From Eledone cirrhosa (taxonomy: Eukaryota), in NCBI GenBank assembly GCA_964016885.1, contig OZ024743.1:61256001-61320000 (forward strand): DNA of 64,000 nt, in the 5' to 3' direction. The notes under the pieces are model-generated. The model searched no databases and was not told the origin of the DNA. It saw nothing but the letters and a program-made list of their open reading frames with translations. Below are positions 15,301 through 47,479 of this stretch, one piece after another. A program made the translations under genes and the position numbers. Each line of letters begins with the position of its first letter. Positions within the stretch are counted from its first letter, which is position 1.

Positions 15301-18300
15301 GAGATACATTACAGAGATACATTACATTACAGAGATACATTACGTTACATAGATACATTACATTACAGAGATACATTACAGAGATACATTACAGAACATA
15401 GATACATTACAGAGATACATTACATTACAGAGATACATTACAGAGATACATTACATTACAGAGATACATTACAGTACATAGATACATTACAGAGATACAT
15501 TACACAGTTACATTACATTACAGAGATACATTACATTACAGAGATACATTACATTACAGAGATACGTTACATTACAGAGATACGTTACATTACATAGATA
15601 CATTACAGAGATACATTACATTACAGAGATACGTTACAGAGATACATTACATTACAGAGATACGTTACATTACAGAGATACATTACATTACATAGATACA
15701 TTACACAGATACATTACATTACAGAGATACGTTACAAAGATACATTACATTACAGAGATACATTTCAGAGATACATTACATTACATAGATACATTACATT
15801 ACAGAGATACATTACAGAGATACATTACATCACATTACAGAGATACGTTACATTACAGAGATACATTACAGAGATACGTTACATTACAGAGATACGTTAC
15901 ATTACAGAGATACGTTACATTACAGAGATACATTACATTACAGAGATACATTACATTACATAGATACATTACACAGTTACATTACATTACAGAGATACAT
16001 TACATTACACAGTTACATTACATTACAGAGATACGTTACATTACAGAAATACATTACAGTACAGAGATACATTACATTACAGAGATACATTACATTACAG
16101 AGATACATTACATTACAGAGATACATTACATTACAGAGATACGTTACAGAGATACGTTACATTACAGAGATACGTTACAGAGATACGTTACATTACAGAG
16201 ATACGTTACAGAGATACATTACAGTACATAGATACATTACAGAGATACATTACCTTACAGAGATACATTACATTACAGAGATACGTTACATTACAGAGAT
16301 ACGTTACAGAGATACGTTACATTACAGAGATACGTTACAGAGATACATTACAGTACATAGATACATTACAGAGATACATTACATTACAGAGATACATTAC
16401 ATTACAGAGATACATTACATTACAGAGATACGTTACATTACATAGATACATTACATTACAGAGATACATTACATTACAGAGATACATTACATTACATAGA
16501 TACATTACATTACATAGATACATTACATTACAGAGATACATTACATTACATAGATACATTACATTACAGAGATACATTACATTACAGAGATACATTACAT
16601 TACACAGTTACATTACATTACAAAGATACGTTACATTACACAGTTACATTACATTACAGAGATACATTACATTACAGAGATACATTACATTACATAGATA
16701 CATTACACAGTTACATTACATTACAGAGATACGTTACATTACAGAGATACATTACACAGATACATTACATTACAGAGATACATTACAGTACATAGATACA
16801 TTACACAGTTACATGACATTACAGAGATACAGTACATTACAGAGATACGTTACATTACAGAGATACGTTACATTACAGAGATACATTACATTACAGAGAT
16901 ACATTACATTACAGAGATACGTCACATTACAGAGATACGTTACATTACAGAGATACATTACATTACAGAGATACTCTACATTACAGAGATACGTTACATT
17001 ACAGAGATACATTACATTACATAGATACATTACATTACAGAGATACATTACATTACAGAGATACATTACACAGTTACATTACATTACAGAGATACATTAC
17101 AGTAGATAGATACATTACAGAGATACATTACATTACAGAGATACATTACATTACAGAGATACATTACACAGATACATTACATTACAGAGATACATTACAT
17201 TACAGAGATACATTACAGTACATAGATACATTACATTACAGAGATACGTTACATTACATAGATACGTTACATTACAGAGATACGTTACATTACAGAGATA
17301 CATTACATTACAGAGATCCATTACATTACAGAGATACGTTACATTACAGAGATACGTTACATTACAGAGATACATTACATTACAGAGATACATTACATTA
17401 CAGAGATACGTTACATTACAGAGATACATTACATTACATAGATACATTACATTACAGAGATACATTACATTACAGAGATACATTACACAGATACATTACA
17501 TTACAGAGATACATTACAGTACATAGATACATTACACAGTTACATGACATTACAGAGATACATTACATTACAGAGATACATTACATTACAGAGATACGTT
17601 ACATTACAGAGATACATTACAGTACAGAGATACATTACAGAGATACATTACATTACAGAGATACATTACATTACATAGATACATTACATTACAGAGATAC
17701 ATTACATTACATAGATACATTACATTACAGAGATACATTACATTACAGAGATACATTACAGAGATACATTACAGTACATAGATACATTACAGAGATACAT
17801 TACATTACAGAGATACATTACAGAGATACATTACATTACAGAGATACATTACATTACATAGATACATTACATTACAGAGATACATTACAGAAATACATTA
17901 CAGTACATAGATACATTACAGAGATACATTACATTACAGAGATACATTACAGAGATACATTACATTACAGAGATACATTACAGTACATGGATACATTACA
18001 CAGTTACATTACATTACAGAGATACATTACATTACAGAGATACATTACATTACAGACATACGTTACATTACAGAGATACATTACATTACATAGATACATT
18101 ACAGAGATACATTACATTACAGAGATACGTTACAGAGATACATTACATTACAGAGATACGTTACATTACAGAGATACATTACATTACATAGATACATTAC
18201 ACAGATACATTACATTACAGAGATACGTTACAGAGATCCATTACGTTACAGAGATACATTTCAGAGATACATTTCATTACATAGATACATTACATTACAG

Positions 18301-21300
18301 AGATACATTACAGAGATACATTACATCACATTACAGAGATACGTTACATTACAGAGATACATTACAGAGATACGTTACATTACAGAGATACGTTACATTA
18401 CAGAGATACATTACATTACAGAGATACATTACATTACATAGATACATTACACAGTTACATTACATTACAGAGATACATTACATTACACAGTTACATTACA
18501 TTACAGAGATACATTACATGACAGAGATACATTACATTACAGAGATACATTACATTACAGAGATACGTTACATTACAGAGATACATTACATTACAGAGAT
18601 ACGTTACAGAGATACATTACAGTACATAGATACATTACAGAGATACATTACATTACAGAGATACATTACATTACATAGATACATTACATTACAGAGATAC
18701 ATTACATTACAGAGATACGTTACATTACAGAGATACGTTACAGAGATACGTTACATTACAGAGATTCGTTACAGAGACACATTACAGTACATAGATACAT
18801 TACAGAGATACATTACATTACAGAGATACATTACATTACACAGTTACATTACATTACAGAGATACATTACATTACAGAGATACATTACATTACAGAGATA
18901 CGTTACATTACATAGATACATTACATTACAGAGATACATTACATTACAGAGATACATTACATTACACAGTTACATTACATTACAGAGATACATTACATTA
19001 CACAGTTACATTACATTACAGAGATACATTACATTACAGAGATACATTACATTACATAGATACATTACACAGTTACATTACATTACAGAGATACGTTACA
19101 TTACAGAGATACATTACACAGATACATTACATTACAGAGATACATTACAGTACATAGATACGTTACACAGTTACATGACATTACAGAGATACAGTACATT
19201 ACAGAGATACGTTACATTACAGAGATACGTTACATTACAGAGATACATTACATTACAGAGATACATTACATTACAGAGATACGTTACATTACAGAGATAC
19301 GTTACATTACAGAGATACATTACATTACAGAGATACATTACATTACAGAGATACGTTACATTACAGAGATACATTACATTACATAGATACATTACATTAC
19401 AGAGATACATTACATTACAGAGATACATTACACAGATACATTACATTACAGAGATACATTACAGTACATAGATACATTACACAGTTACATGACATTACAG
19501 AGATACATTACATTACAGAGATACGTTACATTACAGAGATACATTACAGTACAGAGATACATTACATTACAGAGATACATTACAGAGATACATTACATTA
19601 CAGAGATACATTACATTACATAGATACATTACATTACAGAGATACATTACATTACATAGATACATTACATTACAGAGATACATTACATTACAGAGATACA
19701 TTACAGAGATACATTACAGTACATAGATACATTACAGAGATACCTTACATTACAGAGATACATTACAGAGATACATTACATTACAGAGATACATTACAGT
19801 ACATAGATACATTACACAGTTACATTACATTACAGAGATACATTACATTACAGAGATACATTACATTACAGAGATACGTTACATTACAGAGATACATTAC
19901 ATTACATAGATACATTACAGAGATACATTACATTACAGAGATACGTTACAGAGATACATTACATTACAGAGATACGTTACATTACAGAGATACATTACAT
20001 TACATAGATACATTACACCGATACATTACATTACAGAGATACGTTACAGAGATACATTACATTACAGAGATACATTTCAGAGATACGTTACATTACATAG
20101 ATACATTACATTACAGAGATACATTACAGAGATACATTACATCACATTACACATATACGTTACATTACAGAGATACATTACAGAGATACGTTACATTACA
20201 GAGATACGTTACATTACAGAGATACATTACATTACAGAGATACATTACATTACATAGATACATTACACAGTTACATTACATTACAGAGATACATTACATT
20301 ACACAGTTACATTACATTACAGAGATACGTTACATTACAGAAATACATTACAGTACATAGATATATTACAGAGATATATTACATTACAGAGATACATTAC
20401 AGAGATACATTACATTACAGAGATACATTACAGTACATAGATACATTACACAGTTACATTACATTACAGAGATACATTACATTACAGAGATACGTTACAT
20501 TACACAGATACATTACATTACATAGATACATTACAGAGATACATTACAATACAGAGATACGTTACAGAGATACATTACATTACAGAGATACGTTACATTA
20601 CAGAGATACATTACATTACATAGATACATTACACAGATACATTACATTACAGAGATACGTTACAGAGATACATTACATTACAGAGATACATTACAGAGAT
20701 ACATTACAGAGATACATTACAGAGATACATTACATTACATTACAGAGATACGTTACATTACAGAGATACATTACATTACAGAGATACGTTACATTACAGA
20801 GATACGTTACATTACAGAGATACATTACATTACAGAGATACATTACATTACAGAGATACATTACATTACAGAGATACATTACATTACATAGATACATTAC
20901 ACAGTTACATTACATTACAGAGATACATTACATTACACAGTTACATTACATTACAGAGATACGTTACATTACAGAAATACATTACAGTACATAGATACAT
21001 TACAGAGATACATTACATTACAGAGATACATTACATTACAGAGATACATTACATTACAGAGATACATTACATTACAGAGATACGTTACATTACAGAGATA
21101 CGTTACAGAGATACGTTACATTACAGAGATACGTTACAGAGATACATTACAGTACATAAATACATTACAGAGATACATTACATTACAGAGATACATTACA
21201 TTACAGAGATACATTACATTACAGAGATACGTTACATTACATAGATACATTACATTACAGAGATACATTACATTACACAGTTACATTACATTACAGAGAT

Positions 21301-21430
21301 ACATTACATTACAGAGATACATTACATTACATAGATACATTACACAGTTACATTACATTACAGAGATACGTTACATTACAGAGATACATTACATTACAGA
21401 GATACATTACACAGATACATTACATTATGT
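12340..21430. repeat. ~9-kb satellite of 13/18-bp units GATACATT(ACATT)ACAGA
   Basis: Continuous tandem array, interrupted only at 14190-15171. Confidence 0.98.
14190..15171 (-). mobile_element. 5'-truncated Tx1/L1-clade LINE inserted in the satellite
   Basis: ORF 14454-15035 (PMDNFQKSLAWQCYRGALPVR, CPRC..ETVAHALVHC) is paralogous to the other ORF2 C-termini; 3' end gccctagtggcaaataaaagaaac. Confidence 0.93.
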
Positions 21431-21629
21431 TACACTATGTTCGGGGTGATTTAGCGAGGTACAGTGTCTGACAAGAACGGCCCTTCGAATTTCAGGTACA
21501 ATTCCTTTTATATAACAGCTAAGTGGACTGGTGCAGCATAAAATAAAGTGACTTGCTCAAGGACACAACACAAATACCTGTAATCAAACTTACGATTATA
21601 AGCCGACAGCCGAACCACAAAGACGCAGC

Positions 21630-21630: not shown

Positions 21631-22015
<385 letters not shown>

Positions 22016-22026
22016 ATATATATATG

Positions 22027-22059
<33 letters not shown>

Positions 22060-23529
22060 GTGTGTGTGTATGTATATCTATATATGTGTGTGTGCGTGCG
22101 TGCGCGTGTGTGTACATATACACACGTACATATTGGCAGCCAGATAGAGATGGGCATTTACATACACATCACCATGGTAACACTGAATGATAACAATAGA
22201 TTTTTAACTCGATTTCTTTCCGTCTTTCACTCTCTCTCTTCCTTTCTTTCTTTTTCAAGTACCTTTGGCACAACAAGTTAGTAAGTAATATTTTAAAGCA
22301 CATCATCCTGTATATAGGTAGATCTATATCGCCATTCCAGAGTGATATCCTCGTGCCTTTTTATCTACCTATACCGGTTGGAATTCAAAGCTGTGTTGGT
22401 CTATGTATGTACACACGTGATTCCAGCAACATCAGTATTTAATAGTATAGTCTGTGTTTAATAGCATACGTAGTTTATATTTTCAGCCTCCAGTCACGAA
22501 GTATTTGCCCAGGTCTGCAACACGTAGGCACCGATTGGCGTTCTTTGTTGCTATAGAAATTCCCATAAATATTCTGCAACTGTGAGCCATTTATTACGCT
22601 CATCGCGCTAACGGACAATGTATTTTCCCCACTTCTCTCTCTCTCTCTCTTTCTCTCGTTCTCTATCTATCTATCTATCTAGCTATCTCAATTTCCCCAT
22701 CACTCCCCTCTCTCTCTACCTCTACCTCTCTCTTTCTCTATCTCATTTTCCCCCTCACTCCCCCCCTCTCTCTCTCATTTTCTCCCTCATACCCCCTCTC
22801 TAATTTTCTCCCTCATTCCCCCTCTCTCTCTAATTTTCTCCCTCACCCCCCCTCTCTCTCTCTCGCTGTCAGATGAGGATTAAGATGATGATAATGATTA
22901 TTATCAATTCTCTTTTTCTTGTTGTTATTATTGTTAATATTATCATTATTATTTTTTCTTCACTAGGAACTGCTTCAATGTTACTGGATGACCTTTGCAG
23001 TATTATTGCATGAAGAAAAGAATAAGAACGAGAAGGTTATTTGGATAACGACGATGTAGAGAATTAAACTCGGTAAAGTTAAGTATATATGTCTATATAT
23101 ATATACGGCTATATATATATACGGCTATATATATATACGGCTATATATATATATATATTTCTCTCTCTCTCTATATATATACACACATGTATATATATAT
23201 ATATATGGCTATATAGTATATCCATATATATGTATGTATGTGTGTATGTATGTATGTATATGTGTGTGTATGTATGTATGTATGTATGTATGTATATACG
23301 TATGTATGTGTGTATGTATGTGTACATATACATTATGTGTGTATATATGCATGCATGTATGCATGCATATGGCTATGGCTAAAAACAGCTGGTTGAAGAA
23401 TGCAGAGTTTGATAGAACTTTCTCGTGAAGAATACCAGTTGGCTGCTTGGCTAATGGAAATAAACATATACAAGCATATATTGATGTACAAAATACGTGT
23501 GTATATACTGGGATGTGTGTTTGTGAGTG

Positions 23530-31172: not shown

Positions 31173-33134
31173 TAATAATGAAATATACTCAGAAAAAGTT
31201 AAAATTAGCAATCAAATGATATATAGAGTTATTAATGAGGATTACATTACAATGACACAGCTAATATGTGACTGTTATCGTTAATGTATATCTCACACAC
31301 GAAGATCAATCTCTCTAAATCTCTACTAACAACTGTTACATCATCCACACTTTCATACACCTTATGATGGATATAGGAAATGGTCATCTTTTTTTATCAT
31401 CTTGAATGATTTTGTTCCCCTAGTAACGACCAGTATAGTTTACATGAAAACCATTAGCAGTATATGCACTGGAGAAATGTTTTACTGCATACATATATTG
31501 GTCATAAATACATGGGAAATGGGACATGCTGTCTTATGCCATATAGCAATCATGGTTACTAGAGGCAAGCTCTCAGTTATATGTGCCCTTAAAATATGCT
31601 TTCTTAGCCGCCTAATAAACCTCAGAACCGACTTCCTCAAGCTATATGGACAGTAACAACACACTGAGATGTAAACTCCCCTCAAGCTATAGGGACTTCT
31701 CCAGAACATGTAGACACCTTTTGGCCGGACCTCCCTCAAGCTATATGGGCAGTAACAACACCATAGGTTGGGAACTCCCTTCAAGACATAGGGACCCATC
31801 CAGGCTGAGCAGACACGATGATAGCCTAGAGATTGATTGTGACACAGCCTTTCAAATTTGGCCAACATCTTTATAACTTTGAGATTGGTTATAACACACA
31901 CATTTTATTTTATTTGAATCTTTATTTTCTTATTTTTCATTTATTTTCTAATTTCTTCATTTTATTGCCTTTTATTTCTTCATATACATGCCCCCCCCCC
32001 ACCACCGCCACCACGAGAAATGGTGGCAGGATGGATGCAGCCACACACAGATACTTCTAAAATCAGCAGCAGCAAGACCTAGGCTGACCGCAGCACCAAC
32101 ACCACTACCAAAATAAGGGTAGAGGTCAGATATACTTAACAATAGCAAAAACAAACACTACAGATAGCCTCATCCCAGAAATAATTTCTATAGACTCTCA
32201 CAACTGACCAATGGGAGGAGTTGATCTTACAAATCTTTCTAACTTTGAGATTGGTTATAACACACACACATTTTATTTGATTATCTTATTTTATTCTTTT
32301 ACCATCTTATTCCTTCTACCACTTTCTCATTTTTTTGTTTAATTATTTGCTTATATTATCTTATTTTCATTTTCTATTTTCTTCACTTTATTGCCTTTTA
32401 TTTCTTTATATGATTGCCCCCCCCCCCCCAACACCACCACCACCACCACGAGAAATGGTGACAGGATGGATGCAAAAATACACAGATACTTCTAAAATCA
32501 GCAGCAGCAAAACCTAGGCTGACCGCACCACTACCAAAATAAGGGTAGAAGCCAGATGTACTTAACAATAGCAAAAACAAACACTAAAGATACCCCCACC
32601 CCAGAAGCAATTTCTATAGACTGCTGACTGAGGAATGCTCTCACAACTGACCAATGGGAGGCGTGGATCTTACAAATCTTTCTAACTTTGAGATTGGTTA
32701 TAACACACACATATTTTATTTGATTATCTTATTTTATTCTCTGACCATATTATTCCTTCTACCATTTTATCATTTTTATCATTTTATCATTTTATCATTT
32801 TTATCATTTTATCATTTTTTTGAGCTGACTCCAACACCAACACCACTACCAACATAAGAGTAGAGGTCAGATGTACTTAACAATAACAAGAACATCCACT
32901 ACAGATTGCCTCGCCTCAGAACGAATTTCTATAGACTTTTGACTGAGGAATGTTCTCACAACTGACCAATGGGAGGAGAGGATGTCCTCAGACGCTGAAC
33001 TTCGTTTGTTTAAATTCATATGATTCCAGTTCCTCAGTGAAATAACAACCCAACCAGGAACTGGGCATATCAGAGTATTAACAAAGTTAAACACCTCAAC
33101 AACATGTGTACTCGTCTCTACCACACTAATTCGG

Positions 33135-33189
33135 ACTGCCTGAAGAGGTCACAGCCAAAGATGGCTGTCACCGAAATATATATAGCAGT
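33135..33189 (+). ncRNA. Type I hammerhead ribozyme (family A)
   Basis: actgc-CTGAAGA-ggtcacagcca aaga tggctgtcacc-GAAA-tatata-TA-gcagt. 5-bp stem I, long stem II, short palindromic stem III, AUA cleavage triplet; AATAAA immediately downstream. Confidence 0.9.
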
Positions 33190-34099
33190 AATAAACGAAG
33201 CCAAATTTTAAATATTTGACTTATTTATTTTAGTTTATTTTACATTACTCCGGAGTAACCAAACCAACCTGCGCACCTCGTCGAGTGCTCAAATCTGCAT
33301 ACTGAGGTGTTGGTATACAACCAACATATACTCAAAATTTATATATATATATCCAGGAAACAGTTTTCTATCTCCCTTTCTTCAACCACACGACTCAAAG
33401 CTTGAAACTCGATACAAATACTAAGTTTCACAAACCCTGATCATCACACATGGTGACAGCACAAATAACCCATCCAATCATTACGTATAATAGTTGCATT
33501 TATATGTAGAGGCCAAGTTACTGTTGTTACAATTGCATTTGTTGCTGTTGTAGTTGTTGCAATGAATATAATTGTAGTATTCTCGAGTTTTACTGTTTAG
33601 TCTGAGTAGGGATAGTGCCCATAATTGGTTTCAGGGTCTCCGAGACAGATGGAGAGATGAATGAAGGTATACTCATGTCGGAGACCTGGCCTGAATGCTT
33701 GCAACTGAGTGAACTCCTCTAAGGAGATCAAGTGTAAAAACAAAAACAAAAATAGGAGCTAGTTGTCAGATAGGATCTAGAAAATATTGTTTTCATTGCT
33801 GTTACTATCTACTGGCCGTAAGAGCAGTATTTAGACGTATAGTGTTAGTTATTGCTATTATAGTTGCAATTGTTGCAAATTCAACTGCTGCTGCTGAAAC
33901 AGCAGTAAAGGAATCGCAGAAAGACCTGTGACATGGGTGACGTCATTTTATTTCAGGAAATAACAATAAATTCCAATGGCCCAACCTAGAAACATCATAC
34001 CTTCAAGGAAAGCGAAGTTTTTTACTTTAATAAATAATAGTTAAATTATTCCCCCCCTCTCTCTCTCTCTTTATATGCATGTATATGTATATATGTATG

Positions 34100-34191
<92 letters not shown>

Positions 34192-34382
34192 TAGAAGTTA
34201 ATATGTCCAGGGATACTAGGTACCCCTAGAAATACATAGGTTGTCTATGATTCAAGGTTGTTCAATGGTGTTAATTTGATACACCAGAACTTTAATATTA
34301 AGATAAGCAGAACAAGTAAAATTCAATCAATTTTTCAAAATACATTTAAAAAATATAATATAAATATTTACCTCTTCTAGTG

Positions 34383-34464
34383 GCCCTTACTGATCAGTTT
34401 CGCTTTGTAAAACCTCATAAATCCGATGGATTTATGATGGAAAACCAAAGCTCATCAGAGAAGC
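34383..34464 (-). ncRNA. Type I hammerhead ribozyme (family B)
   Basis: Reverse complement of 34925-35006. Confidence 0.88.
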
Positions 34465-34924
34465 ATTTTCCCTTCCTAGGGCTAAACGTCCCAGGAACGA
34501 CAAAATATACAACCTCCTGCCAACTAATAAAGGTCTGAAAGGTCGTAAAATTGACCCGTATGTAAACTGGACCGAAGTAAAAGCGGGAAAATCAAAGACT
34601 TGCTGTCTACAATTACTACTAAAAAAATAGCAGCCAAGTAGAGCAACAGATTTGTTCTCAACGGACGGAGAAAAAGGTAGAAGTTAATATGTCCAGGTAT
34701 ACTAGGTACCCCTAGAAATACATAGGTTGTCTATGATTCAAGGTTGTTCAATGGTGTTAATTTAATACACCAGAACTTTAATATTAAGATAAGCAGAACA
34801 AGTAAAATTCAATCAATTTTTCAAAATACATTTAAAAATTTTACGACCTTTCAGACCTTTATTAGCTGGCAGGAGGTTGTATATTTTGTCGTTCCTGGGA
34901 CGTTTAGCCCTAGGAAGGGAAAAT

Positions 34925-35006
34925 GCTTCTCTGATGAGCTTTGGTTTTCCATCATAAATCCATCGGATTTATGAGGTTTTACAAAGCGAAACTGATCAGT
35001 AAGGGC
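34925..35006 (+). ncRNA. Type I hammerhead ribozyme (family B)
   Basis: gcttct-CTGATGA-gctttg..(tcataaatc/gatttatga)..caaagc-GAAA-ctgatcag-TA-agggc. GUA triplet and palindromic stem III. Confidence 0.88.
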
Positions 35007-35115
35007 CACTAGAAGAGGTAAATATTTATATTATATTTTTTAAATGTATTTTGAAAAATTGATTGAATTTTACTTGTTCTGCTTATCTTAATATATATAT
35101 ATATATATATATTTA

Positions 35116-36033
35116 TTACTTAAATATAAGTATGTACACGTACATACATATATGTATACAGACGTACAGTAGTATGTATATATATATACATACATGCACA
35201 CATATATATATGTACGTATGGATTCACCGAACATTTATTATAATGCTCGGTGTGTTTGTAAACAACCATCCCGTATTAAGCCGTAGTGTCCAGCAACCAT
35301 CGTTGCTCGTTTGTTCAACACTGACAAAGGAACGCTGTACTAGTTTCAAGCTTATTAGCTATCGTCAGCAACGTATACCTTCCTGCCAGATTGTTGAACG
35401 TATATACTTACCTTATGTATATTAACAGCTGAGAAGCGCAATTTGCATATCGAGTGGGTTAATCAGCCGGGTGCACCAAAAACGATAAACGGAAATAATG
35501 AAACGAAATTTCATTTCCCACTCTTAGTACGGCTGTTACTTAAATATAAGTATGTACACGTACATTCATATATGTATACAGACGTACAGTAGTATGTATA
35601 TATATATACATACATGCACACATATATATATGTACGTATGGATTCACCGAACATTTATTATAATGCTCGGTGTGTTTGTAAACAAACATCCCGTATTAAA
35701 CCGTAGTGTCCAGCAACCATCGTTGCTCGTTTGACGATAGCTAATAAGCTTGAAACTAGTACAGCGTTCCTTTGTCAGTGTTGAACAAACGAGCAACGAT
35801 GGTTGCTGGACACTACGGCTTAATACGGGATGTTTGTTTACAAACACACCGAGCATTATAATAAATGTTCGGTGAATCCATACGTACATATATATATGTG
35901 TGCATGTATGTATATATATATATACATACTACTGTACGTCTGTATACATATATGTATGTACGTGTAGATACTTATATTTAAGTAACAGCCGTACTAAGAG
36001 TGAGAAATGAAATTTCGTTTCATTTTTTCCGTT
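35116..36033 (-). mobile_element. 420-bp HHR repeat: 1.5 tandem units plus an inverted segment
   Basis: Unit starts at 35116 and 35536; 35732-36033 is inverted; flanked by (TA)n. Confidence 0.85.
35333..35373 (-). ncRNA. Minimal type I hammerhead ribozyme (family C)
   Basis: Minus strand cgttg-CTGACGA-tagct aata agctt-GAAA-ctag-TA-cagcg. Palindromic ACTAGT stem III; U-U at the base of stem II. Confidence 0.8.
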
Positions 36034-36058
36034 TATATATATATATATATATATATAT

Positions 36059-36251
36059 AACGAAGGAAATGTGGTAAGGAACCAGGTGGACCATAACGCA
36101 CCAAAGTACTCAATACTTAGAGTAGTAGAGTGGGTAATAGGAACTAGTAAGACCCCGACCGCTGAGCTCAAGCCGTTTCGACGGCTAATTCTGGGCCCAG
36201 AATTAGCCCCGTCGAAACGGCTTGAGCTCAGCCGTCGGGGTCTTACTGGTT

Positions 36252-36256
<5 letters not shown>
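36059..36256. mobile_element. Short element ending in a ~120-bp palindrome, copy 2
   Basis: Palindrome at 36137-36256 centred on gggccc; homologous to 21815-22015. Confidence 0.75.
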
Positions 36257-36330
<74 letters not shown>

Positions 36331-36766
36331 TTATCCAGCTATCCAGCTATCTGTCTATTGCTATCTCTCCTCCTCTCTCTCCTAGCCTCTCTAGCCGTCT
36401 CTCTGCCTTGTTGCATATCTCTTGTGTATCTTTTTTTCTCCCGAAATAACTATTTAGAAAAAACAATAGATATAAAACTATACAATTATTACAAGCATTT
36501 AAATATATGCCTGGTTTTACCTCAGTACACTCTCATTTTTTATTATTGAAAAACGAATTAAATATTATGGGACCAGGTTTCTTTTGTATGGTTTGGTTTC
36601 AGAGTTGTTTAAAAGATGTTTGACAGGTAAAAGATAAAATTGTAGAAAGAATAAAAAATGCAAAAGAACAAAAAATTAAACATTTACTACCAAGTGAATC
36701 CGTTCACTGTATATCTAGACACACCTTAAAGTAATAACAGAGGTGTATATGAAGACATATACGCTA

Positions 36767-39401
36767 TCTATATATATAAAAATGAATGTATGTTTCTTTG
36801 TTTGTCCAAAGATATAAACGGAGAAAGAGAAATCAACGTATATTCAAACAGAGAGTGAAAGAGCGAGTAGTCTGGCTGCTTTGAACCACTCCCTATAACG
36901 TATATTCAAACAGAGAGTGAAAGAGCGAGTAGTCTGGCTGCTTTGAACCACTCCCTATATTAGACTGTCTCTAAAGTTATAAACGGAGAAAGAGAAATCA
37001 ACGTATAGACAAAGAGAGAGTGAAAGAGCAACGTATAGACAAAGAGTGAGTGCTATAAACGGAGAAAGAGAAATCAACGTATAGACAAAGAGTGTGTGAA
37101 AGAGCGAGTGTGACATTTTTTTAATTAAAGATAATTTCAATAGAATTAGTATTCTTTCTTTAATTTAATATAATTTCAATAGAATTAGTAAATTCTCTCT
37201 TTAATTTAATATAATTTCAATAGAATTAGTATAGTGTCTGTTTCACATTACTTCCCTTCCACTCCCATTACAGGGAATTCTTTTTCAGCTAGCCCTTAAC
37301 TAAGTGCTGTAATTTGATATCTTCATTTCGTCTGTCCTTATTTTCCTGACCTGGACACATACGTGGACCGACATCATTCCAAGAATTGAGAACAGTAAAC
37401 GGTCAAGTATGTGCCACTTATCGTGAAGCTTGCCAAGAATTAAATCTTCTTGAAAATGATGGACATTGGGACACTTCACTCGCTGATGCATCGAATACTG
37501 CTCGACCAAAGCAAATACGCACATTATTCTCAATAATATTGACAACGTGCTTCCCATCAAATCCAAAAGATCTTTGGGAAAAATATAAAGACTACATGAG
37601 TGAAGACATCCTACATCGTTTGCGTGCAACAAATCAAAATATGAATATTCAATTCACACAAAATGTGTATAATGAAGCATTGGTTTCCATTGAGGTCATA
37701 TGTTTAGCAATCGCTAACAAAACATTGGTACAATTGGGAATGCCTGCGCCGAATCGATCTGTAAACGACATTTTCGATCGTGATTTGCAACGAGAAACAA
37801 ACTTTGATGTTGCCGAATTGGGTACATTTGTTCAAACGAATCTTCCCAAATTGCTACCAGAACAACGCATAGTATATGACCAAATGATGCAGGCAATTAT
37901 AAGTCAAAGCGGCGGATTGTATTTTATAGATGCGCCAGGTGGTACAGGCAAAACTTTTCTCATTTCACTTATTTTGGCAACTATACGATCAGAAAATAAT
38001 ATTGCACTGGCAATCACATCATCTGGAATTGCGGCAACTCTTTTAGATGGTCGCCGAACAGCACATTCAGCCCTGAAATTGCCATTGAATATGCAAATCG
38101 CTGAGACATCAACATGCAATATTACCAAACATTCTGGTATAGGTAAAGTACTCCAATCATGTAAAATCATTATATGGGACGAATGTACTATGGCGCACAA
38201 AAAATCATTGGAAGCGCTTAATAATACGCTAAAAGATTTGAAAGGAAATGAACACCTCTTCGGTGGCACACTCATTTTATTGTCTGGTGATTTTCGACAA
38301 ACTCTACCAGTTATACCGCGATCAACACCCGCTGATGAGCTTAATGCATGTCTCAAATCATCAGTTTTATGGCGACACGTACAGAAATTAACTTTAAAAA
38401 ACAATATGCGTGTACAACTACAAAATGACGCATCCGCTGAACGTTTCACAAAACAATTGCTGGATATTGGGAATGGGAAAATGGTAATCGATGATTCCAC
38501 AAAATGTATCACATTGCCAACAAACTTCTGTAGAATCACGGCAACCAGAGACGAACTGATTCACAAAGTGTTCCCAAATATTGCGCAGCATTACAAAAAT
38601 CATCAGTGGCTCAGTGTACGTGCTATATTAGCAGCCAAAAACACCGATGTCAATGCCATTAATTTCAGCATTCAAAACGAAATACCAGGCGAAGAGACAA
38701 CGAATAAGTCCATCGGTACTGTAATGAATCAAGACGAAATTATCAATTATCCAATATTCTTGAATTCACTTGATTTGCCAGGCATGCCACCGCACATTTT
38801 AACATTGAAAATTGGCGTGCCTATCATCCTTCTCCGAAACATCAATCCACCACAACTTTGCAACGGTACCAGACTTTCAGTGAAAAAGACGATGAACAAT
38901 ATCATCGAGGCTACAATTTTAAATGGAAAATTTAAAGAAGATGTTCTCTTGCCACGCATCCCAATAATTCCAACAGATACGCCATTCGATTTCAAACGTT
39001 TGCAGTTTCCGGTGCGACTCGCCTTTGCAATGACTATCAACAAAGCACAAGGACAATCGCTACAAGTGTGTGGACTAAATTTAGAAAATCCATGCTTCTC
39101 ACATGGAAAGCTGTATGTGGCTTGCTCACGCGTCGGTAAACCTTCTGATTTATTCGTGTACGCACCAGAAGGAAAAACAAAAAACATTGTGTATCCAAAA
39201 GCACTTCAGTAAAACAAATTAAATGTTCTTATAACGAATTTTCTTTAAATTCGTCAGTCATTCAGTCATTTAAAGATAAATGTTAAAATCTAAAAAATAG
39301 AAACTAAATTACAGAAGTTTTTAAATAACGATTAAAATGTTAATATTATTCTTTTCTAAATAAGCTTTTTAACACTGAGCGAAGCCGGGTAGCTCCGCTA
39401 G
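36767..39401 (+). mobile_element. Helitron, internally deleted (no Rep domain)
   Basis: A|TCTATATATATAAAAATG 5' end, internal minisatellites, 3' hairpin ctgagcgaagccggg and CTAG|T. Confidence 0.9.
37386..39212 (+). CDS. Helitron PIF1-family (SF1B) helicase, N-terminally truncated RepHel
   Basis: 608-codon open frame with DAPGGTGKT, IIWDEC, GDFRQTLPV, LCNGTRL, RLQFPVRLAFAMTINKAQGQ and LYVACSRV; the upstream in-frame sequence reads GPTSFQELRTVNG. Confidence 0.95.
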   Translation: MRTVNGQVCATYREACQELNLLENDGHWDTSLADASNTARPKQIRTLFSIILTTCFPSNPKDLWEKYKDYMSEDILHRLRATNQNMNIQFTQNVYNEALVSIEVICLAIANKTLVQLGMPAPNRSVNDIFDRDLQRETNFDVAELGTFVQTNLPKLLPEQRIVYDQMMQAIISQSGGLYFIDAPGGTGKTFLISLILATIRSENNIALAITSSGIAATLLDGRRTAHSALKLPLNMQIAETSTCNITKHSGIGKVLQSCKIIIWDECTMAHKKSLEALNNTLKDLKGNEHLFGGTLILLSGDFRQTLPVIPRSTPADELNACLKSSVLWRHVQKLTLKNNMRVQLQNDASAERFTKQLLDIGNGKMVIDDSTKCITLPTNFCRITATRDELIHKVFPNIAQHYKNHQWLSVRAILAAKNTDVNAINFSIQNEIPGEETTNKSIGTVMNQDEIINYPIFLNSLDLPGMPPHILTLKIGVPIILLRNINPPQLCNGTRLSVKKTMNNIIEATILNGKFKEDVLLPRIPIIPTDTPFDFKRLQFPVRLAFAMTINKAQGQSLQVCGLNLENPCFSHGKLYVACSRVGKPSDLFVYAPEGKTKNIVYPKALQ

Positions 39402-39479
39402 TGTTTAATAAATATACATAACTTTAGCTGCGACCTATTTATCATATGTTTATTATACATAAACGTATATTATATGAGT

Positions 39480-39863
39480 TGGATTGGCAGTATCGGAAGA
39501 GGGTCAGACAGCATGCTTTCCAGCATAGTTACGTCCCTTTACGATCTGAGTTTAAATCCTGCCGAGGTTGACTTTGCCTTTCATCCTTACGGGGTCGATA
39601 AAATAAAGTAGCAGTAATGCACTGGGTATTTGCTGGCCTTGTGCCTAAAGTAGAAACAATTATATGAGTGAAGAACGGTGGCTTGGCAGTATCGGTAGAG
39701 AGTCGGACACCATGCTTTGACGCATAGAGTTACGGCCCTTTCCAATCTGAGTTCAAATCCTGCCGAGGTTAACTTTGCCTTTCATCCTTACGGGGTCGAT
39801 AAAATAAAGTACCAGTAATACACTGGGTAATTTCTTGCCTTGTGCCAAAAGTAGAAACAATTA
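39480..39863 (+). mobile_element. Two tandem SINEs with a repeated flank ttatatgagt
   Basis: The flank recurs at about 39470, 39660 and 39861. Confidence 0.9.
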
Positions 39864-40031
39864 TATGAGTGAAGGTGCGTGGCTTACGGGTTAAGGTGAT
39901 CGGCTTACGATAAATTTACTTTAATGCAGAATAAGTAGAGCTGGTCTAAGACATTTGGATTTCTTCACATTTGAAGTTCTTTCACCCACAATTCAAATTT
40001 AACCGAAATTCATGCATTCTAAGATTACACC

Positions 40032-40269
40032 CAGTGACGTAGGCTGCCCTTCAGTTTGCCGATGCCACCCAAGATATTACATATTGCTCAATGACTCACT
40101 CTGAAATCTACATACATATATTTACTAGTATGTGAACAAACAATTATAATATTATGCTGTCGCATTAAAATAACGCTTATATGCTACAGCAGACCCCAAA
40201 ATGCTGCCCCCATATAAGTGTTACCGTGGCGCGCTGTCACCCCCTTGCTCCCCTCTAAATACACTACTG
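40032..40269. mobile_element. hAT-type MITE
   Basis: Ends cagtgacgta / tacactactg; perfect 8-bp TSD attacacc at 40024-40031 and 40270-40277. Confidence 0.85.
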
Positions 40270-40479
40270 ATTACACCAGTAATATACTGTTCCGGATCAG
40301 TTATGTGTATACTGGTTGGTGGATAGTGATCTTAGGATCGTGGTATTGTGTCATACACTCCCGACGGTGCAATCAATCTTTCAGCAAGACAACTTCTTTT
40401 TTCACGTTGCTCCAGTCCATTCAGCTAGAATATTCTTCGTTGGAAGAGATGGAAACCCAATACGCACCCATATATATAT

Positions 40480-42435
40480 ATTATAATTATTATTATAATT
40501 ATTATTACTATTTTTATTTTCTTTCATTATTGTTTCTGAGATTTTATCGACCCCGTAAGGATGAAAGGCGAGGTTAACTTTGCCTTTCATCCTTATGGGG
40601 TCGATAAAATAATGTACCAGTAATACACTGGGTAATTGCTGGCCTTGTGCCTAACGTAGAAACAATTATTGTTCCTGAGATATATGCCGAGTGTCTTCCT
40701 GACACCTAGGGCAAATAAATTCACAGTGTGCATTGGTAAGCCAGTTAATACAGCACATTGATTATAATTTTTTAAAAAACAAAAAAAAACAGTATACATA
40801 TATACACATGTGCATATGCTTATGTAAATACAAGGAGGGATATCAATCTTACAGAGATAGTGCTCTTCTCAATACGTGTGGAGAAAGGGTAAACCAGAAA
40901 TCATTCGCAAATATTGTTCTGTTCCTTTCTTGATCATTCCCAGTCCTCCCACAATTACTGGTATTGTAGCGGCCTTGAGGTGCCACATTTTCTCAATTTC
41001 AATAAGCAGATCTTTAGATTTTTGTAGCTTGTCAAATTCTTTTGCCGCAATATTGTGATCACATGGGATGCTCATATCTATCAATAAACAGACCTTGTTG
41101 TGTTAATCTTTTACAATGATGTCAGGTCTGTTTGCTTTTATGGTCCTGTCAGTATGTACAGGAAAGTCCCAGAGAATTATTACTTTTTCTCCTTCAGTTA
41201 CAGCCTCAGGGTGATGATTGTACCACTAATCTTCAGCTTTGATTTTGTAATGCTGACATATTACCCAGTGTAGATATTGGCTAACTCTGTCATGTCTATA
41301 TTTGTATTCTACTGGTGCTAAAACTTTACATCCAGAGACTAAGTGATCTACTGTTTCAACCTCAGCATTGCATAATCGGCACTTTGGGTTTATTCCGTTT
41401 CTCATCACATTGACCTGGTAATTACGAGTCAATAAGCTTTGATCTTGGACAGCTAAGATGAAGCCTTCACTCTCCGCCTTTAGCCCTGAACTACGTAGCC
41501 ACTGATGGGTGTTCTTTTGGTCAACATTAGCTTGTTTGCTACGGGCCACATATTTGCCATGCAGAGGTTTCTGCTCCCAATTTGATGCTAATTGTCCTTG
41601 CCCATTTGCTTTTGCCAGTGATTTTATGTGCCTAGCAACATCAGTTGCAACAGTTTCTTTAGTCTGTCCAGCCTGGGTATCAAGCATGAGATCAGTAGCA
41701 TATTTTTGGCTCTCCTTGAAGATAGAATGAAGCTTCTTACTTCTCTCATGCTTTTCTACAAGTTTCACCATACAGTCGTTAGTTGTTTCAAGGTATTTGG
41801 CCAGTCCAATGATGGTGGTCTTGTAAGCAAGTTCAAATTGGATCAGGCCACGGCCTCCTTGAGTTCTAGGAAGGTAAAGACGATCCACATCTGCTTATGG
41901 GTGATGCATCCTATTACAGGTCAGTAGCTTACGGACCTCAAGTTCCTTTATGATAGTTTCAGCATCCAATTCAATTGAGTCTGAGTTGACAAGCTTCCCC
42001 TTCTTGAAAGTCGCTTTTGCACACTTGTCAAGTCCAAACTCCATCCTGATGACATCGCTAACGTTTTTACTGTCTGCAAAAGGCCTTCCAGTTCGTCATT
42101 ATCTTTGCAATATAGCTTCAAATCATCAATATAAAATAGGTGGCTTATTTTTTTGTTGCCAATTAGTACCCTGTTCTATTAAGTTCGGATGTAAGGGGTA
42201 TTAAGCTATGCAGAAAAGGAAGGGTGAAAGTGAGTCACCCTGGAATATACCACAGTTGATGTTTATATTCCTAGAGCACAGTACCCCGGTGGAATTAGAC
42301 AATTGGAGATTTGTGTTCCATAATGACATATTGTGCTTCAGGAAGTTTGAGATCACAGGTGACATTTTGAAAATGTCCAGTGATTTCAGAATCCATGAGT
42401 GTGGAATGCTGTCAAAGGCTTTTTTATAATCGATC
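40480..42435 (-). mobile_element. R4/Dong-clade LINE, 3' part (RT C-terminus, CCHC, REL endonuclease, (TAA)n tail)
   Basis: IDYKKAFDS, GIFQGDSLSP, DRLYLPR..GGRGL, CRLC..ETVDHLVSGC..RHD, NRPDII, IDMSIP; frameshifted. Confidence 0.93.
40543..40670 (+). mobile_element. SINE with a fold-back 5' end and 17-bp TSD, inside the Dong 3' UTR
   Basis: TSD attattgtt(t/c)ctgagat at 40526-40542 and 40665-40681. Confidence 0.85.
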
Positions 42436-43769
42436 AGACACGATGATAGCCTAGAGATTGATTTTGACACAGCCTTTCAAATTTGGCCAACATCTTTATA
42501 ACTTTGAGATTGGTTATAACACACACATTTTATTTTATTTGAATCTTTATTTTCTTATTTTTCATTTATTTTCTAATTTCTTCATTTTATTGCCTTTTAT
42601 TTCTTCATATACATGCCCCACCCCCCACCACCACCGCCACCACGAGAAATGGTGGCAGGATGGATGCAGTCACACACAGATACTTCTAAAATCAGCAGCA
42701 GCAAGACCTAGGCTGACCGCAGCACCAACACCACTACCAAAATAAGGGTAGAGGTCAGATATACTTAACAATAGCAAAAACAAACACTACAGATAGCCTC
42801 ATCCCAGAAATAATTTCTATAGACTTTTGACTGAGGAATGCTCTCACAACTGACCAATGGGAGGAGTTGATCTTACAAATCTTTCTAACTTTGAGATTGG
42901 TTATAACACACACACATTTTATTTGATTATCTTATTTTATTCTTTTACCATCTTATTCCTTCTACCACTTTCTCATTTTTTTGTTTAATTATTTGCTTAT
43001 ATTATCTTATTTTCATTTTCTATTTTCTTCACTTTATTGCCTTTTATTTCTTTATATGATTGCCCCCCCCCCCATCACCACCACGAGAAATGGTGACAGG
43101 ATGGATGCAAAAATACACAGATACTTCTAAAATCAGCAGCAGCAAGACCTAGGCTGACCGCACCACTACCAAAATAAGGGTAGAGGCCAGATGTACTTAA
43201 CAATAGCAAAAACAAACACTAAAGATACCCCCACCCCAGAAGCAATTTCTATAGACTGCTGACTGAGGAATGCTCTCACAACTGACCAATGGGAGGCGTG
43301 GATCTTACAAATCTTTCTAACTTTGAGATTGGTTATAACACACACATATTTTATTTGATTATCTTATTTTATTCTCTGACCATATTATTCCTTCTACCAT
43401 TTTATCATTTTTATCATTTTATCATTTTATCATTTTTATCATTTTATCATTTTTTTGAGCTGACTCCAACACCAACACCACTACCAACATAAGAGTAGAG
43501 GTCAGATGTACTTAACAATAACAAGAACATCCACTACAGATTGCCTCGCCTCAGAACGAATTTCTATAGACTTTTGACTGAGGAATGTTCTCACAACTGA
43601 CCAATGGGAGGAGAGGATGTCCTCAGACGCTGAACTTCGTTTGTTTAAATTCATATGATTCCAGTTCCTCAGTGAAATAACAACCCAACCAGGAACTGGG
43701 CATATCAGAGTATTAACAAAGTTAAACACCTCAACAACATGTGTACTCGTCTCTACCACACTAATTCGA

Positions 43770-43824
43770 ACTGCCTGAAGAGGTCACAGCCAAAGATGGC
43801 TGTCACCGAAATATATATAGCAGT
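43770..43824 (+). ncRNA. Hammerhead ribozyme family A, copy 2
   Basis: Identical to 33135-33189. Confidence 0.9.
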
Positions 43825-44734
43825 AATAAACGAAGCCAAATTTTAAATATTTGACTTATTTATTTTAGTTTATTTTACATTACTCCGGAGTAACCAAACC
43901 AACCTGCGCACCTCGTCGAGTGCTCAAATCTGCATACTGAGGTGTTGGTATACAACCAACATATACTCAAAATTTATATATATATATCCAGGAAACAGTT
44001 TTCTATCTCCCTTTCTTCAACCACACGACTAAAAGCTTGAAACTCGATACAAATACTAAGTTTCACAAACCCTGATCATCACACATGGTGACAGCACAAA
44101 TAACCCATCCAATCATTACGTATAATAGTTGCATTTACATGTAGAGGCCAAGTTACTGTTGTTACAATTGCATTTGTTGCTGTTGTAGTTGTTGCAATGA
44201 ATATAATTGTAGTATTCTCGAGTTTTACTGTTTAGTCTGAGTAGGGATAGTGCCCATAATTGGTTTCAGGGTCTCCGAGACAGATGGAGAGATGAATGAA
44301 GGTATACTCATGTCGGAGACCTGGCCTGAATGCTTGCAACTGAGTGAACTCCTCTAAGGAGATCAAGTGTAAAAACAAAAACAAAAATAGGAGCTAGTTG
44401 TCAGATAGGATCTAGAAAATATTGTTTTCATTGCTGTTACTATCCACTGGCCGTAAGAGCAGTATTTAGACGTATAGTGTTAGTTATTGCTATTATAGTT
44501 GCAATTGTTGCAAATTCAACTGCTGCTGCTGAAACAGCAGTAAAGGAATCGCAGAAAGACCTGTGACATGGGTGACGTCATTTTATTTCAGGAAATAACA
44601 ATAAATTCCAATGGCCCAACATAGAAACTTCATACCTTCAAGAACAGGGAAGTTTTTTACTTTAATAAATAATAGTTAAATTATTCCCCCCCTCTCTCTC
44701 TCTCTTTATATGTATGTATATGTATATATGTATG

Positions 44735-44798
<64 letters not shown>

Positions 44799-44989
44799 TA
44801 GAAGTTAATATGTCCAGGGATACTAGGTACCCCTAGAAATACATAGGTTGTCTATGATTCAAGGTTGTTCAATGGTGTTAATTTGATACACCAGAACTTT
44901 AATATTAAGATAAGCAGAACAAGTAAAATTCAATCAATTTTTCAAAATACATTTAAAAAATATAATATAAATATTTACCTCTTCTAGTG

Positions 44990-45071
44990 GCCCTTACTGA
45001 TCAGTTTCGCTTTGTAAAACCTCATAAATCCGATGGATTTATGATGGAAAACCAAAGCTCATCAGAGAAGC
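44990..45071 (-). ncRNA. Hammerhead ribozyme family B
   Basis: Same sequence as 34383-34464. Confidence 0.88.
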
Positions 45072-45475
45072 ATTTTCCCTTCCTAGGGCTAAACGTCCCA
45101 GGAACGACAAAATATACAACCTCCTGCCAGCTAATAAAGGTCTGAAAGGTCGTAAAATTGACCCGTATGTAAACTGGACCGAAGTAAAAGCGGGAAAATC
45201 AAAGACTTGCTGTCTACAATTACTACTAAAAAAATAGCAGCCAAGTAGAGCAACAGATTTGTTCTCAACGGACGGAGAAAAAGGTAGAAGTTAATATGTC
45301 CAGGGATACTAGGTACCCCTAGAAATACATAGGTTGTCTATGATTCAAGGTTGTTCAATGGTGTTAATTTGATACACCAGAACTTTAATATTAAGATAAG
45401 CAGAACAAGTAAAATTCAATCAATTTTTCAAAATACATTTAAAAAATATAATATAAATATTTACCTCTTCTAGTG

Positions 45476-45557
45476 GCCCTTACTGATCAGTTTCGCTTTG
45501 TAAAACCTCATAAATCCGATGGATTTATGATGGAAAACCAAAGCTCATCAGAGAAGC
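45476..45557 (-). ncRNA. Hammerhead ribozyme family B
   Basis: Tandem copy 486 bp from the previous one. Confidence 0.88.
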
Positions 45558-46017
45558 ATTTTCCCTTCCTAGGACTAAACGTCCCAGGAACGACAAAATA
45601 TACAACCTCCTGCCAGCTAATAAAGGTCTGAAAGGTCGTAAAATTGACCCGTATGTAAATTGGACCGAAGTAAAAGCGGGAAAATCAAAGACTTGCTGTC
45701 TACAATTACTACTAAAAAAATAGCAGCCAAGTAGAGCAACAGATTTGTTCTCAACGGACGGAGAAAAAGGTAGAAGTTAATATGTCCAGGGATACTAGGT
45801 ACCCCTAGAAATACATAGGTTGTCTATGATTCAAGGTTGTTCAATGGTGTTAATTTGATACACCAGAACTTTAATATTAAGATAAGCAGAACAAGTAAAA
45901 TTCAATCAATTTTTCAAAATACATTTAAAAATTTTACGACCTTTCAGACCTTTATTAGCTGGCAGGAGGTTGTATATTTTGTCGTTCCTGGGACGTTTAG
46001 CCCTAGGAAGGGAAAAT

Positions 46018-46099
46018 GCTTCTCTGATGAGCTTTGGTTTTCCATCATAAATCCATCGGATTTATGAGGTTTTACAAATCGAAACTGATCAGTAAGGGC
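46018..46099 (+). ncRNA. Hammerhead ribozyme family B (stem II mismatch)
   Basis: Inverted copy; caaagc is changed to caaatc. Confidence 0.8.
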
Positions 46100-46423
46100 C
46101 ACTAGAAGAGGTAAATATTTATATTATATTTTTTAAATGTATTTTGAAAAATTGATTGAATTTTACTTGTTCTGCTTATCTTAATATATATATATATATA
46201 TATTTATTACTTAAATATAAGTATGTACACGTACATACATATATGTATACAGGCGTACAGTAGTATGTATATATATATACATACATGCACACATATATAT
46301 ATGTACGTATGGATTCACCGAACATTTATTATAATGCTCGGTGTGTTTGTAAACAACCATCCCGTATTAAGCCGTAGTGTCCAGCAACCATCGTTGCTCG
46401 TTTGTTCAACACTGACAAAGGAA

Positions 46424-46464
46424 CGCTGTACTAGTTTCAAGCTTATTAGCTATCGTCAGCAACG
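46424..46464 (-). ncRNA. Minimal hammerhead ribozyme family C, copy 2
   Basis: Identical to 35333-35373. Confidence 0.8.
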
Positions 46465-46820
46465 TATACCTTCCTGCCAGATTGTTGAACGTATATACTT
46501 ACCTTATGTATATTAACAGCTGAGAAGCGCAATTTGCATATCGAGTGGGTTAATCAGCCGGGTGCACCAAAAACGATAAACGGAAATAATGAAACGAAAT
46601 TTCATTTCCCACTCTTAGTACGGCTGTTACTTAAATATAAGTATGTACACGTACATACATATATGTATACAGACGTACAGTAGTATGTATATATATATAC
46701 ATACATGCACACATATATATATGTACGTATGGATTCACCGAACATTTATTATAATGCTCGGTGTGTTTGTAAACAAACATCCCGTATTAAACCGTAGTGT
46801 CCAGCAACCATCGTTGCTCG

Positions 46821-47384
46821 TTTTTATAATCGATCCATGCAGAACTGAGATTTCAGTGTTTATCATGACAGCTCTCAAGGATCATACGGTTAATCAAAAG
46901 TTGATATTTGCAACCATATGAACCTCGTCGGCACCCTTTTTGTTCAATGGGGAAAAGATTGTTCTCCTCCAAAAACACGTATGCTTTTCCCATGAGAATA
47001 GAGGTTAATAGTTTATAAGTGGTGGACAAGCAGGTTATGGGCCGATAGTTTTTTGGATCTTTGGTTTCGTTGTTCTTTCGTAGAAGGTAGGTAATGCCAC
47101 TTGCTATCCAATCAGGTGTATTTTTTTGATCTTTCATAATTCCATTAAACAGCTTGACCAATATATTGTCAGTGCACGGGAGTGAGGAAAGCCAGAAATT
47201 TGGCACTCTGTCTCTACCAGGAGATTTCCATTTACGAGATTTATTGAGTGCTGTCCTTAAGTCCGCTATAGAGATGTCTTCCCACGCCTGTTCTTCTAAA
47301 TTTGTGTTGGATTTTTCCAGGCGACTAATCCAATCTACATTAGCATTATGTCTTCTCATCACTCCAAATCTTACTCCAGAAGTT
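46821..47384 (-). mobile_element. R4/Dong-clade LINE, 5' continuation of the copy at 40480-42435
   Basis: WKSPGRDRVPNFWL, NYRPITCL, EQKGCRRGSYGCK, then LSSAWIDYK joining across the TSD. Confidence 0.92.
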
Positions 47385-47479
47385 TTCAACTTCTATGGGA
47401 TAGATAAAATAAAGTACCAGTAATGTACTGGTAATTGCTGGCCTTGTGCCAAAAGTAGAAACAATTATTATTATTATTA
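47385..47479 (+). mobile_element. 5'-truncated SINE
   Basis: Core 3' half, tail and (ATT)n. Confidence 0.85.

Follow-up and report, generated by a model that had tools for sequence, protein, structure and literature searches.

A 64,000-nt stretch of the Eledone cirrhosa genome (assembly GCA_964016885.1, contig OZ024743.1, positions 61,256,001–61,320,000 of the forward strand; hereafter the window, in whose numbering positions are given) contains a reverse transcriptase (RT) gene that is split by a 4.4-kb insert carrying five predicted hammerhead motifs. We judge, by a modest balance of probability, that this insert is a one-off templated duplication of a nearby 3.9-kb patch into a staggered break. 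The repair-mediated reading is supported by the observations that neither end of the insert is a family terminus, both lying inside elements, that neither junction, on inspection, carries a poly(A/T) or tandem tail, that there is microhomology at both junctions, and that the donor lies 6.7 kb away. The patch comprises the tail of a Penelope-like element (PLE; part A), a spacer of host DNA (E) and pieces of two retrozymes (B and C); the preliminary description of the locus had taken it for a higher-order ribozyme cassette that is mobile in its own right.

The insert is a copy of a neighbouring patch

Comparison of the window with itself identifies the insert, 42436–46823, as a copy of 31811–35732 on the plus strand (copy 1, the donor, with 1.34 B units). 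The near-identity noted previously is therefore borne out, with the match reaching 46823. The two copies stand in the same orientation in an assembly of 2,996 Mb, and differ by 22 substitutions outside the extra B unit of copy 2 (24 when compared against unit 2), a divergence of ~0.6%. The donor's PLE copy starts at ~31606, 205 bp outside the insert, and, as this start (31606–31810, plus strand) is absent from copy 2, it reveals which way the copying went, namely from copy 1. Also absent from copy 2 is the donor's second, inverted C arm (35732–36036, plus strand), which ends at the fixed end of that family (unit positions 271–273).

Copy 1 has a 17-bp gap (given earlier as 16 bp) and is 11 bases longer in a C-rich run, copy 2 has one more 486-bp B unit, as had been noticed, and microsatellite lengths also differ between the copies. 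The 17-bp stretch is present in paralogous internal repeats, so the gap arose by later loss from copy 1. Between themselves, the two B units of copy 2 show differences at 2 of 486 positions, the same level as between the copies, which weakly favours unit loss in copy 1; the 486-bp difference is thus more likely a change of unit number in a tandem array, by loss from copy 1. With family copies as the outgroup (18 comparisons, with 31839 ambiguous and 32511 lacking an outgroup; spacer changes were left out), five derived changes fall in copy 1 and six in copy 2, plus two private to the extra unit. By this count both copies have drifted to a similar extent since the duplication and, given these private changes, the third source copy that had been offered as an alternative to later deletion in copy 1 is not needed. 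Separately, five substitutions are clustered within 28 bp (33986–34013 versus 44621–44648), probably representing a single mutation event.

Target site and host retrotransposon

The flanking 15-mer occurs exactly twice within the window, at 42421–42435 and 46821–46835 (both plus strand). Nine further members of the host RT family all align over the site with flanks that overlap by 15 bp, and therefore the repeat is a true target-site duplication (TSD); the 15-mer site is present once in each of the seven whose sequence was inspected, and the empty site is observed only in such paralogous copies of the family. The 15 bp claimed for the TSD is the maximum, however: TTT at 46821–46823 is also present in the donor, giving a 12-bp reading, as is the C at 42435, and its length can be read as 11–15 bp, or 11–12 bp without the donor-shared bases. 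Junction microhomology amounts to 3 nt on the right and 1 nt on the left (within a three-of-four-base match). A TSD is in itself no proof of reverse transcription, of which ~15-bp TSDs had been called typical in its target-primed form, because TSDs of 4–21 nt are also found in five of 39 proximal repair-mediated duplications (PMC2671141).

The interrupted gene belongs to a minus-strand copy of a non-LTR (non-long terminal repeat) retrotransposon, with the 3' side of the split RT at 40948–42435 and the 5' side at 46821–47394. Both halves of the frame can be read, ...SAWIDYK on the right and IDYKKAFDS on the left, and the break falls in the motif AWIDYKKAFDS, as previously stated. We take this element to be R4/Dong-like, a label based on its motifs; a weak Pfam match to zf-RVT and a PDB match to an R2 protein at E 0.64 name no clade. 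At 41936/41937 the host copy is missing ~235 bp that most of its relatives possess. The insert contains only three ATG frames, of 60–97 aa and all of low complexity, in keeping with the earlier verdict that it has no credible open reading frame.

A tandem duplication of 31811–42435, followed by a separate 6.7-kb deletion leaving 15 bp, would give the identical final sequence order, and the palindrome at 35485–36036 could promote such a deletion. Out of 6.7 kb, however, the independent deletion must have stopped within ~15 bp of the duplication junction, and we give this route only a small chance of being correct. L1-type priming, or target-primed transduction by a long interspersed nuclear element, was considered and rejected: there is no tail, and the nick geometry would leave an A-ended primer.

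Copy number in the assembly

For each genome query, the best 36–40 candidates were scored. Spacer E (43988–44706) is full-length only at its two places in the window (best 40 of 149 candidates, the other 38 being short matches of 71–84%), and it was not found at 178 other fetched loci, bar two short matches to old repeats. The A–E junction and the B inversion junction likewise each occur at two places (36 of 36 candidates scored and best 40 of 788, respectively), whereas the right and left insertion junctions each occur at one (best 40 of 631 and of 1147). Other insertions sharing the same ends with different TSDs, which would be expected of a mobile unit, were therefore not found among these candidates. 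A total of just two copies is the outcome that the preliminary description had itself named as counting against its proposal.

A fused three-ribozyme cassette, mobile as a unit and with a third source copy elsewhere, is accordingly the least probable of the accounts considered here. That the composite did move once as a single piece with a TSD is in its favour, and this much of the original proposal stands: separate ribozyme elements and the DNA between them entered the RT gene in one event. There is, moreover, a known parallel in the Terminons, PLE-type units that also carry several hammerhead motifs over a long element; these, in contrast, code for numerous proteins, exist as families and are attached to telomeres (PMC6431247), whereas the patch has two copies and no open reading frame of its own. 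Both copies found are cut inside elements, the five hammerhead motifs are spread over both strands, the two copies have drifted symmetrically, and spacer E does not recur.

An assembly artefact in which two haplotypes were placed in tandem has a slim chance, in our estimation. The region is repeat-rich, no listed record among the sequencing-run contigs aligned to the locus spans either junction, which also counts against the repair reading, and a run contig over E mixes the alleles of both copies and adds one new base. Conversely, haplotype stacking would not be expected to yield a perfect TSD at a site that the rest of the family shows to be empty. Over E, contig depths are 13, 12 and 16, against 2–10 for nearby single-copy sequence (three runs of one sample); this ~2–3-fold rise lends weak support to a real duplication, contig depth not being copy number. 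A 4400-base skip in run X3 was rejected as an allele of the locus, since it derives from other copies of the host family (depth 535).

Composition of the patch

Part A (also A/D; 42436–43987, plus strand) is the 3' region of a Hydra-type PLE, with internal repeats of ~430 bp and a terminal repeat. Together with the ~430-bp repeats to its left in the donor, it forms a single family, of which 30 listed matches, starting at 31632 or earlier, cross the left break of the insert. The break thus cuts the element ~205 bp inside the start of the donor copy, and the right end of part A is the common 3' end of the family. Judging from its coding relatives, part A is the tail of a protein-coding family, contrary to the description of all the ribozyme-bearing parts as non-autonomous. 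Two A-family loci (L053 and L054) encode an RT followed by a C-terminal GIY-YIG domain, recognized by YRDD and then YIGAT, and L054 also has the RWK and DKT motifs; in a Pfam check, GIY-YIG was matched at E 0.004, below its cut-off, and RT was not matched. The CxCX5C linker is degenerate in both coding copies examined, each of which is broken. L053 further contains, on its minus strand near 1650, a second, opposite PLE fragment in which this linker is intact, and in L054 a 73% diverged relative of B (1830–2561) adjoins an A copy. The C-terminal GIY-YIG, the RWK and DKT motifs, the 3' hammerhead, the (TA)n targets and the inverted partial arms are all features that family A shares with the Hydra clade (PMC8557442), in whose supplements it may already be listed; the fit to this clade is by motifs, the window holding only the 3' non-coding part.

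To the right of spacer E, a (TA)n-type microsatellite (44707–44795) was the recipient of retrozyme B. Arm 1 of B (44796–45931, minus strand) contains 2.34 units of 486 bp and has its outer end at unit position 199, whereas the inverted arm 2 (45930–46187, plus strand) has its outer end at position 93. A further (TA)n (46188–46206) separates B from retrozyme C, of which only arm 1 is present (46207–46823, minus strand; 420-bp unit), its break coinciding with the donor's inversion junction. Both retrozymes belong to abundant families of tandem non-coding units (1999 first-look candidates for B and 2687 for C). As with animal non-LTR retrozymes, the units are of low GC content and have one predicted type I hammerhead each; they differ in length (486 and 420 bp, against 170–400 nt given for invertebrates) and, in C, by a U.U pair at the hammerhead core (PMC7229834; 10.64898/2026.07.22.740005). 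Parts A, B and C all appear to belong to known kinds of element (PMC7229834, PMC7761336, 10.64898/2026.07.22.740005).

The predicted hammerheads lie where the preliminary description placed them. Motif A (43771–43823, plus strand) is of type I with a palindromic stem III; motif B occurs twice in arm 1 (44991–45069 and 45477–45555, minus strand) and once in arm 2 (46020–46098, plus strand), where a change specific to copy 2, at 46079, falls in stem II. These were located by motif scan, whereas the hammerhead-like motif C (46424–46464, minus strand), with its U.U pair beside the core, was read by eye. Rfam returned no hammerhead family among 131 matches, nor among five in a second search; its microRNA matches were rejected as TA-repeat noise. 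The motif is mostly intact among family copies (44 of B and 20 of C), which are too young to exhibit covariation, and hammerhead activity is thus a prediction only. Within the insert, the ribozymes are likely to have been passengers.

Retrozyme ends and (TA)n targets

Each retrozyme family has two preferred outer ends (unit positions 93 and 196–199 in B; 271–273 and ~214 in C), and head-to-head arms are frequent in both. These preferences match what is reported for a PLE, namely two internal start sites for reverse transcription and cutting of both strands (PMC11167929). In family A the two preferred ends are ~107 nt apart, in B 106 nt and in C 51–59 nt, all longer than the published 30–40-bp tail. 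The right break of the insert, at C unit position 26, lies off the preferred ends of C.

Of 40 B loci, 39 touch (TA)n on one side or both, as do 28 of 40 C loci. Another of the four (TA)n families is present in the fetched sequence of 7 of the 27 A loci, 16 of the 45 B loci and 13 of the 81 C loci, and three occur together at 3 of 153. A common targeting of (TA)n would explain this pile-up without any fusion into a functional unit. A fourth such family, a fold-back element embedded in (TA)n, lies to the right of the donor (36059–36252) and at ~21807–22085, and has A, B or C as a neighbour at many loci elsewhere. One and the same 944-bp B insertion is present three times (L138, L139 and L147), ~100 kb apart on one contig, as part of a larger segmental repeat.

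The inversion junction of the donor's C element was found at four other loci, the closest being an insertion of its own into (TA)n whose ends differ; this recurrence marks the junction as a hotspot, not as a sign of further cassettes. The same junction (unit position 25 to 391; window 35690–35780) is seen at L049 in an insertion that arose independently and has its arm ends exchanged, and it adjoins a 7-nt complementarity to stem I of the ribozyme.

Origin of the duplication

The donor patch brings together members of distinct abundant families, whose ends abut (TA)n: a PLE truncated at its 5' end and the two retrozymes. Two offset nicks in the RT gene, plausibly the work of a PLE endonuclease, as the TATAA end suggests, would then have left 3' overhangs; the A-rich end of the bottom strand may have annealed to the T run at 35730–35732, at the top of the C fold-back, from where DNA repair synthesis would have extended leftwards for ~4 kb along the donor. 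A three-of-four-base match (31807–31810) would have let the other overhang capture the new strand, and fill-in of the overhangs would yield the target duplication. A PLE-made cut that is filled from DNA falls within this repair-mediated account.

Published repair-mediated duplications likewise consist of a repeat interrupted by DNA that has one other copy nearby, with microhomology, no poly(A) and, in some cases, a TSD (PMC2671141). Filling in 3' overhangs is known to produce such short duplications (PMC8355091), and templated insertion combined with fill-in is generally supported, albeit for much shorter events (PMC8421209, PMC8355091). Our literature search found no closer precedent than these duplications and the PLE capture considered below.

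Several points weigh against simple repair or set the locus apart from the published cases. The insert (3.9–4.4 kb) and the distance to its donor (6.7 kb) are outside the limits of the published class, in which proximal duplications are of up to 619 bp and within 5 kb, and distant ones of up to 3,424 bp; the microhomology is at the bottom of the reported 2–9 nt range or beneath it (PMC2671141), and the genome is of invertebrate type, with a target that looks PLE-cut. Indeed, among 80 loci, the three C copies with readable TSDs have 11, 11 and 12 bp (candidates of 6–7 nt and four TA-like ones, at L120, L144, L168 and L173, being set aside), two of the three have TATA at the fixed end, and the target here resembles those of PLEs; this likeness was noticed post hoc and carries no shuffle control. 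Moreover, an all-AT 6-mer with TATA follows 28 of 38 true C ends, as it does the insert (12 of 50 rows, being internal unit continuations, were dropped by eye), whereas this class makes up 34 of 4058 host 6-mers (0.8%), in a test defined after the junction had been seen. The last 5 nt of the insert are also the last 5 nt of the fixed end of C, and a DNA hairpin would only loosely explain why the insert ends exactly at the inversion junction. Finally, the one-off character of the event is drawn from searches that scored just the best 40 candidates.

These points lend themselves to a PLE-driven local capture, which we regard as a serious though unlikely rival. A PLE would have nicked a TATA-ended target and primed on the fixed end of C; it may have jumped after ~5 nt, unless a later deletion between two identical 5-mers removed arm 2; a plus-strand read-through RNA of copy 1 would then have been copied for 3.9 kb, until 5' truncation. 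This would amount to a 5' transduction primed by a retrozyme. Consistent with it are the 11–12-bp reading of the TSD and its TATAA end, as in the readable C insertions at L035 and L095, the occurrence of the 5-mer both at 35728 and, as the fixed end of the family, at 36030, and the template jumps illustrated by three-segment C insertions (L100, L102 and L120). In the PLE studied biochemically, moreover, RT starts at internal fixed sites, both strands of AT-rich DNA are cut, and ribozyme cleavage is dispensable in vitro (PMC11167929). Capture of host DNA also has a precedent in Adineta vaga, where PLEs have moved unspliced, partly non-coding DNA in trans together with PLE repeats, giving TSDs of 8–10 bp; that cargo, however, is framed by terminal repeats, whereas here the ends cut elements, no real family terminus is kept, and the donor adjoins (PMC3846280).

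The capture scenario makes further demands. A diffusing ribonucleoprotein would be very unlikely to land <10 kb from its donor unless tethered, and the scenario also requires an unseen transcript starting to the left of 31811 and a precise removal of arm 2. No RNA run was listed for the locus, an outcome that carries no information on expression. The 5-mer is only a short match; it is found four times in the donor cassette, and three of its bases also agree with the target. Heavy RNA editing is absent from the 250-bp perfect hairpins: one A>G change among 253 A residues in those of copy 2 excludes editing at 5% (p = 3e-5) but is compatible with 1% (p = 0.28). As B and C family copies have no A>G strand excess, this test discriminates weakly, and it offers correspondingly little help to the repair reading. 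A broader form, in which a PLE endonuclease cut is primed at the fixed end of the retrozyme and filled through a jump to the adjacent locus, whether as nascent RNA or DNA, seems to us about as probable as the capture itself.

If the duplication was repair-mediated, it left an ordinary scar that stands out by its size and cautions against taking a 15-bp TSD on either side of ribozyme repeats to imply a new mobile unit. Should the PLE have been responsible, a failed or diverted Penelope insertion would have duplicated 4 kb of adjoining DNA, and PLE-rich genomes would be able to produce multi-kilobase local duplications by a route peculiar to them. The 11–12-bp, TATA-ended target duplications would then provide a searchable signature of PLE-made structural variation and of host DNA capture, a step left unexplained in the studies considered here.

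Neighbouring features

Between the two copies, a 620-residue open frame (37350–39212, plus strand) encodes a PIF1 helicase (Pfam PF05970); it is multi-copy by contig depth and is likely to be a piece of a Helitron. Further to the left, ~9 kb of short-period minisatellite (12500–21450) gives rise to long, spurious open frames.

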